From a virus (lineage: Duplodnaviria; Heunggongvirae; Uroviricota; Caudoviricetes), in the IMG/VR virus record IMGVR_UViG_2703718850_000006, positions 1 to 44,611 of that record: 44,611 bases of DNA. The stretch is one strand, 5' to 3'. Each line of letters opens with the position of its first letter. Position 1 is the stretch's first letter. The notes beneath the pieces are model-generated. The model did no database searches and was not told the DNA's origin. It saw nothing but the letters and a program-made list of their open reading frames with translations. Shown piece by piece: positions 41,287 through 42,430 of the stretch. A program made the position numbers and the translations under genes.

Positions 41287-41394
41287 ATGAAAAGCAACCG
41301 TGAATTAAACAGAGTAAAACTGATTTTAATCCTTGCCACAGTGCTTACACTAACAGAAATCATTATTCTCTTTATTGCGCTGTCAGTCGGTTAA
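41287..41394 (+). CDS. small hydrophobic peptide (35 aa, single TM)
   Basis: Read directly from sequence (MKSNRELNRVKLILILATVLTLTEIIILFIALSVG); weak RBS. Confidence 0.3.
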   Translation: MKSNRELNRVKLILILATVLTLTEIIILFIALSVG

Positions 41395-41417
41395 AAATAT
41401 CGGGATACCACAGACCA

Positions 41418-41606
41418 ATGAGACTGTATTTCACAATAGTAATTTTACTGGCAATTATCGCATGCATTTACGGATTATTCGTTCCGTTCCTTATATCCAT
41501 GAAGGATACGATAGCAGTTATTTCTGGCTTTGCACTGGCGTTTCTGACCCCGCCCTGCATTTATGCCATTTACAAGGGTCTTTCTTTCACTAAGGATAAA
41601 AGATGA
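41418..41606 (+). CDS. small membrane protein (62 aa, two TM segments)
   Basis: ORF ATGA-coupled to the SPFH gene. Confidence 0.45.
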   Translation: MRLYFTIVILLAIIACIYGLFVPFLISMKDTIAVISGFALAFLTPPCIYAIYKGLSFTKDKR

Positions 41607-42430
41607 AAAAAATTATTTTTGCTTTAGCCATTGTTCTGCCGACTATTGGCCTTGTCGGTTGCGATCGCGTTGAACCAGGTAATGTTGGCATCAAGGTAAA
41701 TAAACTGGGCGACGACAAAGGCGTCGGTGAGGTGGTCGGTGTTGGTCGCTACTGGACTGGCTGGAATACTGAAGTTTATATCTTCCCCACCTTCAAACAA
41801 ATGAAGACCTACGATGAACCGTTCAGTTTCCAGATGAGTGACGGTACAACCATCGGCTATCACATCGGTGTGGCCTACAAAGTTGATCCATCCAAAGTTA
41901 CCACGGTGTTTCAGACCTACCGCAAAGGCGTGGATGACATTACCGACACTGACCTGCGCCAGAAAATTGCCGACGCACTCAATCGGCTGGCCAGCAAAAT
42001 GACCACTGACAAATTTATCGACGGCGGCAAGTCTGAACTACTGGATGCCGCACTTAAAGACATTCAGGAAGAGATGACACCCATCGGCATTCAGGTAATG
42101 AGCCTCTCTTATGTAGGTAAACCGGAATACCCTCCAACCGTTATCGACAGCATTAACGCCAAAGTCACGGCAAACCAGAAAACCCTGCAGCGCGAACAGG
42201 AAGTCAAGCAACGTGAAGCGGAGGCCAACATGCTACGTGCGGAAGCTGCCGGACAGGCTGATGCCATTCGAACAAAAGCCCAGGCAGAAGCCGATGCCAT
42301 TCGTTTACGCGGCGAAGCTCTGCGCCAGAACCCAGGCGTCATGGAGCTGGAAGCCATCAACAAGTGGAACGGTACACTGCCGCAATACATGACCAGTGGT
42401 GCCAATACACCATTTATCCAGATTAAATAA
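41603..42430 (+). CDS. SPFH/band-7 (HflC/stomatin-like) domain lipoprotein
   Basis: 275-aa ORF; lipoprotein signal with lipobox LVGC; SPFH-like core and C-terminal charged coiled-coil (...QREQEVKQREAEANMLRAEAAGQADAIR...). Confidence 0.75.
   Translation: MKKIIFALAIVLPTIGLVGCDRVEPGNVGIKVNKLGDDKGVGEVVGVGRYWTGWNTEVYIFPTFKQMKTYDEPFSFQMSDGTTIGYHIGVAYKVDPSKVTTVFQTYRKGVDDITDTDLRQKIADALNRLASKMTTDKFIDGGKSELLDAALKDIQEEMTPIGIQVMSLSYVGKPEYPPTVIDSINAKVTANQKTLQREQEVKQREAEANMLRAEAAGQADAIRTKAQAEADAIRLRGEALRQNPGVMELEAINKWNGTLPQYMTSGANTPFIQIK

Follow-up and report, generated by a model that had tools for sequence, protein, structure and literature searches.

The window examined here is the whole 44,611-nucleotide stretch of DNA from a virus of the class Caudoviricetes. 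Its + strand carries a 35-aa ORF, a gene for a 62-aa protein with two predicted transmembrane (TM) segments and a gene for a 275-aa lipoprotein of the SPFH/Band_7 family (Table 1). The preliminary description had presented the three as a trio in a repressor-to-integrase operon. The ORF list bears out all three reading frames, and the placement holds as well: a CI-like repressor gene lies upstream, and same-strand ORFs run from a promoter-like site via the three ORFs to xis and int. The stop codon of the 62-aa gene and the start codon of the SPFH gene overlap in an ATGA, as described earlier, which suggests translational coupling of the two genes.

Table 1. Features of the SPFH locus, with positions in the window.
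Feature	Position	Strand	Basis or remark
CI-like repressor gene	38417-39109		upstream of the operon with the three ORFs
Terminator-like hairpin with T8, after the CI-like repressor gene	39131-39149	+	terminator scan
Promoter-like site, sigma-70-like TTGACG-17-TATTAT	39179-39207	+	promoter scan
35-aa ORF	41287-41394	+	ORF list
62-aa two-TM gene	41418-41606	+	ORF list
ATGA overlap, stop of 62-aa gene and start of SPFH gene	41603-41606	+	sequence
275-aa SPFH lipoprotein gene	41603-42430	+	ORF list
GC-rich stem-loop, 8 nt past the SPFH stop, without U-run	42438-42456	+	RNA fold

The segment 39131-39207, with its terminator-like hairpin and promoter-like site, is probably the start of the operon bearing the SPFH module. 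A palindrome, ATAGGATAACCTAT, overlaps the promoter-like site, and a related half-site pair, ATCGGAATGCCTAT, is present at 38372-38385 in the cI-cro intergenic region. The palindrome is a putative operator; at two mismatches the window as a whole contains no more copies than chance predicts (9 versus 10.4 expected), and its positions alone are suggestive of such a role. The view of the module as an autonomous cassette with its own promoter and terminator has no clear support. The promoter scan called no promoter within 41242-41417, where a TATAAT at 41254-41259 was seen by eye with a poor -35 and 19-nt spacing. The stem-loop beyond the SPFH gene (dG -17.1 kcal/mol, z = -1.78 versus shuffles) was not called by the terminator scan and is not a canonical intrinsic terminator; it may stabilise the transcript or have no role at all. 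The pair of genes overlaps its flanking genes in other phages. No Rfam match was found at E<=0.1 across 38000-44611, the AT-rich spacer included.

The SPFH-like core, lipobox and charged C-terminal coiled-coil proposed for the 275-aa product were all recovered. Pfam Band_7 (PF01145) matches residues 22-208 over profile positions 2-176 of 176, with E=6.1e-31 and 108.3 bits against a cut-off of 23.6 bits, a match far past chance; judged by its sequence, the product is a true SPFH/Band_7 protein. It also belongs to PHROG 200 (phrog_200, E=1e-114), is labelled 'SPFH domain-containing protein' in RefSeq and corresponds to gene L05 of phage phiP27; the SPFH gene as such is not new.

The N-terminus, MKKIIFALAIVLPTIGLVGC followed by Asp, reads as a signal peptide (residues 1-19) with a lipobox, L17-V18-G19-C20, in which the Cys codon occupies 41660-41662 and Asp21 is at position +2. 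With the pattern [LVI][ASTVI][GAS]C, 105 of 120 close homologues carry a lipobox, and the +2 residue in these 105 Cys-bearing proteins is Asp (101) or Glu (4). Asp at +2 is the inner-membrane retention rule for lipoproteins of E. coli and the Enterobacterales. Some family members have lost the Cys, and in others (L201, L203 and L217) the lipobox is replaced by an uncleaved N-terminal TM anchor. These TM-anchored relatives support an inner-membrane location, since a TM helix at the N-terminus would retain them there. In Pseudomonas- and Xanthomonas-type members, unlike those with Asp or Glu at +2, Ser-Lys follows the Cys, a context from which sorting is not predictable.

Structures were predicted for single chains. 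In the AlphaFold2 model of the 275-aa protein (mean pLDDT 72, core 70-91), the SPFH core is followed by one long helix (residues 178-242) rich in Ala, Glu, Gln, Arg and Lys, and then by a C-terminal KW-x-G-x-LP...PF motif, of which K254, W255, G257 and P260 are invariant across members that are 37-100% identical. Foldseek aligned the model over 260-315 columns with prohibitin (8rrh), HflK/C (7vhq and 9cz2), erlin, stomatin and flotillin, with E-values from 1e-13 to 1e-7, the full-length matches to 8rrh and 7vhq being at about 1e-13. The predicted fold fits the cage-forming proteins prohibitin and HflK/C end to end, and the low-confidence C-terminal 33 residues are consistent with a segment that would become ordered only within an oligomer.

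Hydropathy places two hydrophobic segments in the 62-aa protein, at residues 7-25 and 32-50, in agreement with the two TM segments described for it. Its predicted topology is N-in/C-in, in which a short turn faces the periplasm; the C-terminal tail is rich in Lys and Arg. It matches phrog_1130 (E=2.7e-23), as do 31 of 31 sampled relatives. The family comprises about 30 representative clusters, essentially all of standalone proteins of 45-90 aa, and has a conserved turn motif, P-x-L-I/V-S-x-K-D-T, together with a basic C-tail. A natural in-frame fusion of the two-TM and SPFH proteins also exists (P0002), for which fold prediction, at the level of secondary structure only, gives a helical hairpin with its turn at the conserved motif. 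The search of the partner for NfeD, which the preliminary description had called for, gave no Pfam match at E<=1 for the 62-aa protein and 30 relatives; at 45-90 aa the family is also too short for an OB-fold domain, and an NfeD identity was rejected.

How constant is this association? Profile-HMM searches of sampled SPFH loci (n=247; about 1 Mb) placed a same-strand two-TM gene immediately before the SPFH gene in 218 loci. Conversely, 220 ORFs in the sampled sequence match the two-TM profile, and 218 of them adjoin an SPFH gene upstream. When SPFH proteins were clustered at 70% identity, the profile recognised the partner in 32 of 39 clusters. Of the seven HMM-negative clusters, six carry a same-strand 2-TM ORF upstream that the profile does not recognise, and in the last a two-TM profile match lies about 900 nt away. 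The commonest spacing is the 4-nt overlap, with others at -1, -8, -11, -14 and -17 nt. By these sequence counts the SPFH lipoprotein has a near-obligatory partner in the 62-aa protein.

The pair is carried by temperate phages (lambdoid phiP27-like, P2-like P88, HK97-like Fraca, and Klebsiella and Pseudomonas phages), by SSU5-like phage-plasmids and by virulent phages (N4-like KpCHEMY26 and PB119, rV5-like Mydo), and remote SPFH relatives occur in haloarchaeal viruses. The N4-like and rV5-like phages, which are virulent, encode it in early or middle regions. The wider locus is present in 389 of 5426 E. coli genomes and is phage-borne rather than a core host gene, and relatives of the window turn up commonly in STEC and in Stx2 phages. 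Within one genus, some members lack the SPFH gene (PMC8540360). Between P88 and the window's lambdoid prophage the SPFH ectodomain is 97% identical, while the two-TM partners are only 24% identical. The pair is accessory, patchy and horizontally mobile, and constitutes a real, widespread accessory module whose SPFH domain, lipobox, gene coupling and phylogenetic distribution are directly established.

The 35-aa ORF, in contrast to the 62-aa/SPFH pair, is optional and lies outside the conserved module. Its product has the one TM segment described for it (hydropathy) and a charged N-terminus, with a predicted N-in/C-out topology; it has no family match in Pfam and PHROG searches, no RefSeq annotation and no clear Shine-Dalgarno sequence before it. 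The 35-aa stretch is found in 133 E. coli genomes versus 389 for the wider locus. Were the peptide a functional third subunit of a three-component system, one would point to its conservation among the 48 of 109 close loci that carry it, where it is always intact and keeps its hydrophobic core through 13 variants. One would also point to a mild third-position excess in codon-position variability (7/3/9) and to more synonymous changes in frame (syn/nonsyn 7/12) than out of frame (4/15 and 3/16), which weakly support the ORF being coding. Moreover, N4-like KpCHEMY26 has a 93-aa single-TM gene there (gp27), unrelated in sequence, that overlaps the start of the two-TM gene. However, this coding signal is statistically weak, the ORF is missing from 61 of the 109 close loci, and it is not present in P88, Fraca or the examined Klebsiella, Pseudomonas and rV5-like phages. 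We consider a third subunit quite improbable; the functional unit is two genes, not three, and the proposal of a trio does not stand in that form.

Among known systems, the HflK/HflC-FtsH and prohibitin (PHB1/2)-m-AAA complexes share with the 275-aa protein a Band_7/SPFH domain, a long helix and a C-terminal cap. They hold the SPFH domain on the periplasmic or intermembrane-space face of an energy-transducing membrane, as is predicted for the phage protein, and all three would be expected as rings or domes. It is conceivable that the phage pair mimics HflK/C, its SPFH ring docking on the periplasmic side of FtsH while the two-TM protein supplies TM contacts. Proteolysis of CII/CIII-type regulators, LpxC, SecY or membrane proteins would then be altered, tuning lysogenisation in temperate phages or assisting host takeover by virulent ones. 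The lambda FtsH inhibitor cIII resides in the equivalent operon, which counts in favour of such a mimic. E. coli HflK (E=2e-4) and prohibitin-2 are the best sequence matches among solved structures, HflC and HflK are the only NCBIfam matches, and the top Foldseek matches, prohibitin and HflK/C, both partner FtsH-type proteases. An FtsH role is compatible with the periplasm-facing topology and with these nearest solved relatives. The preliminary description had put forward an effect on FtsH and CII in lysogeny control, an idea that is not new for phage SPFH genes (PMC8540360, PMC4936722).

Several observations nevertheless weigh against this explanation. The NCBIfam scores are 25.5 bits for HflC (TIGR01932, cut-off 134.4) and 23.4 bits for HflK (TIGR01933, cut-off 159.4), so that HflK/HflC equivalog identity fails by about 110-135 bits. 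The Foldseek E-values of prohibitin, HflK/C, erlin and stomatin fall within about two orders of magnitude, which makes 'closest to HflK' non-discriminating. HflK/C and prohibitin are hetero-pairs, whereas the phage has one SPFH gene, with no second Band_7 ORF in the operon; HflK/C always has a TM helix, whereas the phage protein has a lipid anchor or, in some relatives, a single TM. The phage SPFH gene, unlike HflK/C, has a dedicated two-TM partner, and its near-universality points to a phage-encoded client. To our knowledge, the hosts of the haloarchaeal viruses that carry remote relatives lack FtsH. Finally, a lysogeny-specific role is disfavoured by how common the pair is among virulent phages, for which no lysogeny decision arises. 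In view of these points we regard an HflK/C mimic as unlikely.

The SPFH-NfeD operons (QmcA-YbbJ, YqiK-YqiJ and archaeal stomatin-STOPP) likewise combine an SPFH gene with a co-transcribed gene for a small membrane protein, and are the best analogy for the way the module is built. Their partner, however, has an NfeD/OB-fold, whereas the phage partner is a bare two-TM hairpin, and QmcA faces the cytoplasm, opposite to the orientation predicted for the phage protein. Closer to hand, Kayvirus MbpS, T5.080 and the 'lipoprotein/serine protease' genes of Bruynoghevirus and N4-like phages share the same PHROG 200 and Pfam domain. With MbpS and T5.080 the window protein shares only about 25% identity, and T5.080 differs further in being TM-anchored and without a two-TM partner. 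Phage SPFH genes have repeatedly been noted as puzzling (PMC7150955, PMC8540360, PMC13239085). The conserved two-TM partner is not described in the literature found, and literature searches turned up no functional study of close family members. PADLOC-DB gave no match at E<=0.1 for the three products and their immediate neighbours; membership in a known defence system was rejected, and the earlier remark that the trio is not a named system agrees both with this and with papers to 2026 that call phage SPFH genes unexplained.

The properties of the partner raise the question of a pore. In size, two TM segments, N-in/C-in topology and basic tail the 62-aa protein resembles class II holins and SLATT effectors. 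In principle, it could be a holin- or SLATT-like permeabiliser that the SPFH ring holds inactive or organises, with lysis timing, or a triggered collapse of the membrane potential, for instance on superinfection (Rex-like exclusion), as the outcome. The predicted class II holin-like architecture, at 55-90 aa, fits such a gated pore, and tight translational coupling is what one expects of a toxin and its restrainer. Seven of 31 partner members show DUF4231 matches in a consistent register, DUF4231 being what we take to be a member of the SLATT clan of two-TM pore-forming effectors. These matches score 13.7-17.7 bits against a cut-off of 24.7, however, and short two-TM proteins often give weak matches to membrane models. 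The sole holin match among the 31 members is to Phage_holin_3_1 (E=0.095, one member), and the family, unlike holins and SLATT effectors, has its own conserved turn motif.

Genomic position bears on the same question. In Staphylococcus Kayvirus the SPFH gene mbpS is in the lysis region, beside the holin-like mbpV (PMC7150955), which favours a gated pore. The pairs of Proteobacterial phages, by contrast, lie in early or replication regions and not beside endolysin and holin genes, and a near-identical prophage, UTAK-5, encodes holin and endolysin in a separate cassette about 14 kb from the pair. A holin identity of the 62-aa protein was rejected, as it has no significant family match and is not beside an endolysin, and a pore restrained by the SPFH ring seems to us improbable.

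The reading we favour, albeit tentatively and without counting it as probable, is that of a two-gene inner-membrane scaffold module with an envelope-protection or exclusion role. Inner-membrane retention, an oligomeric cage, a client relationship and the biological role itself are what we infer for the pair. The 62-aa protein would be an inner-membrane two-helix hairpin with both ends cytoplasmic and the conserved turn periplasmic, while the 275-aa protein would be exported, lipidated at Cys20 and kept at the inner membrane by Asp at +2, which would put the SPFH domain on the periplasmic face. There it would most likely form a ring or dome enclosing a membrane patch, like prohibitin, HflK/C, stomatin and QmcA, and the co-translated hairpin protein would be its built-in client or nucleator. 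The fold matches include solved structures in which an SPFH assembly surrounds a membrane client: QmcA-YbbJ (8z5g), FtsH-HflKC (7wi3) and stomatin-aquaporin (9zd2). Given an ectodomain that is so much better conserved than the partner in P88, any contact between the two must rest on few motif residues; alternatively, the partner may not be a client and may act instead in insertion or anchoring.

Made from the early (pL-type) operon after infection or induction, the scaffold pair would provide an accessory, mobile envelope function for lytic growth, and not for the lysis/lysogeny decision. Its role, on this proposal, would be to insulate the inner membrane of the infected cell, which would impede the entry of competing phages' genomes and/or premature damage to the envelope. 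Exclusion of superinfecting phage by the locus, as suggested earlier, is possible. Known superinfection-exclusion proteins (T4 Imm and Sp, T5 Llp, phi80/N15 Cor, P22 SieA and HK97 gp15) have no sequence relationship to the pair; like it, they are small membrane proteins or lipoproteins, early or prophage-made, accessory and patchy. They are, however, typically narrow, fast-evolving, phage-specific and aimed at a specific receptor or tail protein. The phage SPFH family, unlike these proteins, shows good conservation among phages whose tails are very different and unrelated; hence a generic membrane role fits better than a specific block of injection. In a CRISPRi screen, T5.080, a remote T5 relative, was dispensable ('Not Fit'; PMC11879866). 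T5.080 is the only family member covered by the CRISPRi-ART data, with no closer relative among the screened phages, and its dispensability transfers weakly, as it is 24% identical over 91 residues and has no partner.

A role in the lysogen has also to be weighed. The 275-aa protein might be a lysogenic-conversion lipoprotein, expressed from the prophage and benefiting the bacterium in an animal host through envelope robustness or immune stimulation. The precedent, likened by description only, is PM0222 of Pasteurella multocida, an HflK/C-like protein on a lambda-like prophage. PM0222 can be detected in the wild-type strain as well as in outer-membrane vesicles; it stimulates TLR1/2, a receptor pair that senses triacylated lipoproteins, and its deletion attenuates virulence in mice (PMC9872710). 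The abundance of the window's relatives in STEC and Stx2 phages would also suit such a role. Even so, TLR2 stimulation is generic to lipoproteins, virulent phages, unable to convert a host, carry the same pair, no convincing promoter precedes the module, and the promoter of the operon appears to be under repressor control. We judge lysogenic conversion very improbable.

Going beyond the scaffold reading, one may picture the pair as a device of an undescribed class, carried by phages of many lineages, in which a periplasmic SPFH cage over a two-TM oligomer remodels or gates the host inner membrane during infection. We think this rather doubtful, if slightly less so than either an FtsH-directed mimic or a pore held by its ring. 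Gating could take the form of a latent pore that is restrained until it fires on superinfection or at lysis; alternatively, the device could hide envelope perturbation from membrane-sensing host defences. If true, this would be a membrane-control system distinct both from SPFH-NfeD and from HflKC-FtsH.

SPFH proteins, among them prohibitins, stomatins, flotillins and HflK/C, form cages over membrane clients, and phage-encoded SPFH genes have been flagged as unexplained in genome papers for more than 20 years. The counts given here show that the phage SPFH gene nearly always has the gene of one small two-helix membrane protein as its companion. The pairing, which spans virulent and temperate phages, turns a vague annotation into a defined, clonable two-gene system and shifts the hypothesis from control of lysogeny to the envelope of the infected cell. 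If a role in exclusion or membrane protection is true, it would bear on phage-phage competition and on the biology of Stx prophages in STEC, as well as on the choice of therapeutic phages, since N4-like, rV5-like and Kayvirus phages carry relatives.

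The window corresponds to an E. coli prophage of the lambdoid, phiP27-like kind; its closest genomic match (99.5%) adjoins mlrA, and there the repressor gene is followed by the accessory operon, then by xis and int. The three ORFs of the preliminary description, the lipobox LVGC and the coupling of the 275-aa lipoprotein gene to that of a 62-aa two-transmembrane (TM) protein, through an ATGA common to the start of the former and the end of the latter, were all confirmed. The proposed SPFH identity of the lipoprotein was borne out by a Pfam HMM check, with a Band_7 match spanning the whole profile (E=6.1e-31). 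Under the RefSeq label 'SPFH domain-containing protein', the gene is present in 389 of 5426 complete E. coli genomes; its phiP27 counterpart, L05, is labelled 'putative serine protease' or 'lipoprotein', and it is also found in a set of Stx2 phages. The nearest relative of the window is the prophage of E. coli UTAK-5 (locus L001), in which the IS66-family element ISEc23 splits an ORF6N-domain gene of the late regulatory region (L001 7496-10383). The integrase stop codon is the exact end of the window.

Features of the window around the SPFH gene
Feature	Position	Strand	Remarks
One-mismatch relative of ATAGGATAACCTAT	38372-38385		cI-cro intergenic region
CI-like gene	38417-39109		
Intrinsic-terminator-like hairpin with T8	39131-39149		3' of CI-like gene
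Promoter-like site TTGACG-17-TATTAT	39179-39207		overlapped by palindrome ATAGGATAACCTAT
PHROG 1515 gene, 218 aa	40585-41241		directly upstream of module
35-aa ORF	41287-41394	+	one hydrophobic segment, no family match
62-aa protein gene	41418-41606	+	two hydrophobic segments, basic C-tail; PHROG 1130 'membrane protein'
275-aa SPFH/Band_7 gene	41603-42430	+	PHROG 200 'lipoprotein', E=1e-114
Hairpin 3' of SPFH stop	42438-42456		dG -17.1, z -1.78; no U-run
DUF5406 protein (E=4e-22), DUF4222 protein (E=2e-15), 48-aa ORF (phrog_3871)	42471-43116		3' of module
xis	43275-43484		after DUF5406/DUF4222/phrog_3871 stretch
int	43412-44611		ORF; in-frame start not fixed

The SPFH protein begins with a signal peptide that ends in the lipobox and is followed by Asp. 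The lipobox Cys is kept in 105 of 120 close homologues, with Asp at +2 in 101 and Glu in four; Asp at this position is a classical inner-membrane retention signal in E. coli. In some relatives, the lipobox is replaced by an uncleaved N-terminal TM helix, which would likewise keep the protein in the inner membrane. Given the +2 residue and these TM-anchored relatives, the SPFH domain is predicted to lie on the periplasmic face. Two sets of homologues have lost the Cys: it is Tyr (GIIGYDRVEPG) across a whole phage-plasmid subgroup (P0108-P0120, SSU5-like contigs of ~110 kb; L256 6001-6831), and Trp, Tyr or Phe in a few Klebsiella proteins (P0057, P0058, P0060 and P0061). Such versions could not be lipidated and are presumably anchored by an uncleaved signal sequence. 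The Pseudomonas-type lipobox is Cys-Ser-Lys.

In the AlphaFold2 monomer model (pLDDT 72, core 70-91), a beta-rich and alpha/beta SPFH core is followed by a single helix of ~65 residues; the C-terminal tail, KW-x-G-x-LP...PF, has low model confidence yet is highly conserved. Foldseek gave full-length alignments with ring- or dome-forming SPFH proteins, namely prohibitin (8rrh, 1e-13), HflK/C (7vhq, 1.3e-13), erlin, stomatin, flotillin and QmcA-YbbJ (8z5g), while the nearest solved chain by sequence is E. coli HflK (E=2e-4). The predicted topology and the nearest relatives agree with an HflK/C-like action on FtsH; the HflK/HflC equivalog tests fail, however, and we regard this action as unlikely.

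The conserved unit is the pair of 62-aa and SPFH genes. A homologue of the 62-aa partner is encoded directly 5' of the SPFH gene in P2-like P88 (gp11/gp12), HK97-like Fraca, Klebsiella ST340-VIM1phi10.1, Pseudomonas Ostro, Burkholderia E173, N4-like KpCHEMY26 (gp28/gp29), PB119 and SSU5-like phage-plasmids. In rV5-like Mydo, one small ORF lies between the two; it encodes a 54-aa soluble protein (gp155, L004 2332-2496), a lineage-specific insertion of rV5-like phages. Using a partner profile of 38 members on 240 viral contigs sampled with three differently ordered queries (loci being the best 80 per query), we found that 218 of 247 SPFH loci carry a profile-positive partner just 5' of the SPFH gene and in the same orientation; this holds for 52 of 60 clusters when clustering is at 90% identity and for 32 of 39 when it is at 70%. 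The commonest spacing in these loci is a 4-nt overlap. Six of the seven profile-negative clusters have an unrecognised two-TM ORF of 55-92 aa 5' of the SPFH gene and in the same orientation, right next to it in five of them and ~420 nt off in one, and the seventh has a profile-positive ORF ~900 nt upstream. Across ~1 Mb of sampled loci, 218 of 220 profile-positive ORFs occupy the position immediately upstream of an SPFH gene. The partner family, of ~30 representative clusters, is essentially all standalone (45-90 aa), and its invariant Pro and Gly flank a short turn, P-x-L-I/V-S-x-K-D-T, predicted by the positive-inside rule to face the periplasm. In P0002 (347 aa, 8 member sequences), a P88-type two-TM protein is naturally fused in frame to an SPFH lipoprotein precursor; the fusion is either genuine or the product of a stop codon lost at the overlap.

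The pair had been described as part of a trio, and this did not hold for the 35-aa ORF as a fixed member: of 109 close viral loci, 48 contain it, always intact, and in the remaining 61 a different gene precedes the 62-aa gene or overlaps it. Its DNA is present in 133 E. coli genomes, versus 389 for the wider locus, and RefSeq leaves it unannotated. All 13 variants remain hydrophobic; variable sites are distributed 7/3/9 by codon position, with syn/nonsyn counts of 7/12 in frame versus 4/15 and 3/16 out of frame, a weak coding signal. In KpCHEMY26, an unrelated 93-aa single-TM protein (gp27, L005 2723-3004) is encoded in the equivalent place, overlapping the two-TM gene, and for this reason the single-TM genes may represent an analogous accessory subunit.

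A promoter scan directly 5' of the module called none, and an Rfam search of the region matched no family. Further upstream, ATAGGATAACCTAT and its relative are candidate operator sites at which the prophage repressor could act. Since the promoter-like site resembles a pL-type promoter under repressor control, lysogens probably do not express the module.

When the SPFH protein was used as a tblastn query, 741 of 50,697 phage records matched, and in 666 the match spanned 80% or more of the query. Among the matches are virulent N4-like Schitoviridae (Erwinia S6, Klebsiella KpCHEMY26 and Pylas, Xanthomonas PB119) and rV5-like Vequintavirinae (Mydo, SSE121, GAP31); remoter ones come from Staphylococcus Kayvirus (MbpS), Enterococcus, Caulobacter, crAss-like, jumbo and haloarchaeal viruses. 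All the Proteobacterial loci that were inspected have the SPFH gene in the company of early, middle or replication-region genes. HflK/C and lysogeny have been speculated upon for SPFH genes of unrelated phages (PMC8540360, PMC4936722), and a role in lysogeny control was also suggested for this locus. This was not borne out: because the gene is carried by strictly virulent phages, a function in the lysis/lysogeny decision cannot explain its distribution, and the dedicated partner also speaks against it.

The module has a patchy distribution (it occurs in 7% of E. coli genomes), and the SPFH gene is missing from some members of one phage genus (PMC8540360). The P88 ectodomain is 97% identical to that of the window, but its signal peptide and its partner are of another type, the partner being only 24% identical; comparison of P88 (L003 3884-4914) with window positions 41418-42430 places a recombination junction at the signal peptide/mature protein boundary. 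Partner types are therefore swappable on a near-identical ectodomain. The pair and the PHROG 1515 gene are frequent neighbours in variable order, the homologue in Klebsiella ST340-VIM1phi10.1 following the SPFH gene directly and overlapping it by 4 nt (L006 3825-4451). A remote Band_7 relative, T5.080 (PHROG 200; L259 992-1939, tRNA-rich region of T5), was dispensable ('Not Fit') in a CRISPRi-ART screen (PMC11879866 supplements), although it aligns with the window protein at 24% identity over 91 residues only, lacks a two-TM partner and is TM-anchored. The module thus looks accessory and horizontally mobile.

Given this patchiness, mobility and dispensable remote relative, we tentatively favour an early-expressed accessory envelope function, in which the pair, produced early in the infected cell, would shield its inner membrane from competitors or from damage. 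A role in lysogenic conversion, of the kind claimed for Pasteurella PM0222, seems very improbable. That the SPFH protein gates a holin- or SLATT-like pore made by the partner is doubtful, even though the partner's topology fits, it has weak sub-threshold DUF4231 matches, and mbpS of Kayvirus is situated in the lysis region (PMC7150955). The sequences support a two-component inner-membrane assembly with the SPFH part predicted to face the periplasm. Solved SPFH complexes enclose a membrane client (FtsH in HflK/C, YbbJ in QmcA, aquaporin in stomatin); by analogy, the genetically welded hairpin protein would most likely be the client or nucleator of the SPFH assembly.

Our literature search on this SPFH family found no functional study, PADLOC has no model matching any of the 35-, 62- and 275-aa proteins, and the reason for SPFH genes in unrelated phages has been called unclear (PMC13239085, dated 2026). 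The gene family itself is already catalogued; what is new is that the two-gene module is nearly universal and also occurs in virulent phages, which makes it a fresh variation on the known combination of an SPFH protein and a small membrane partner.
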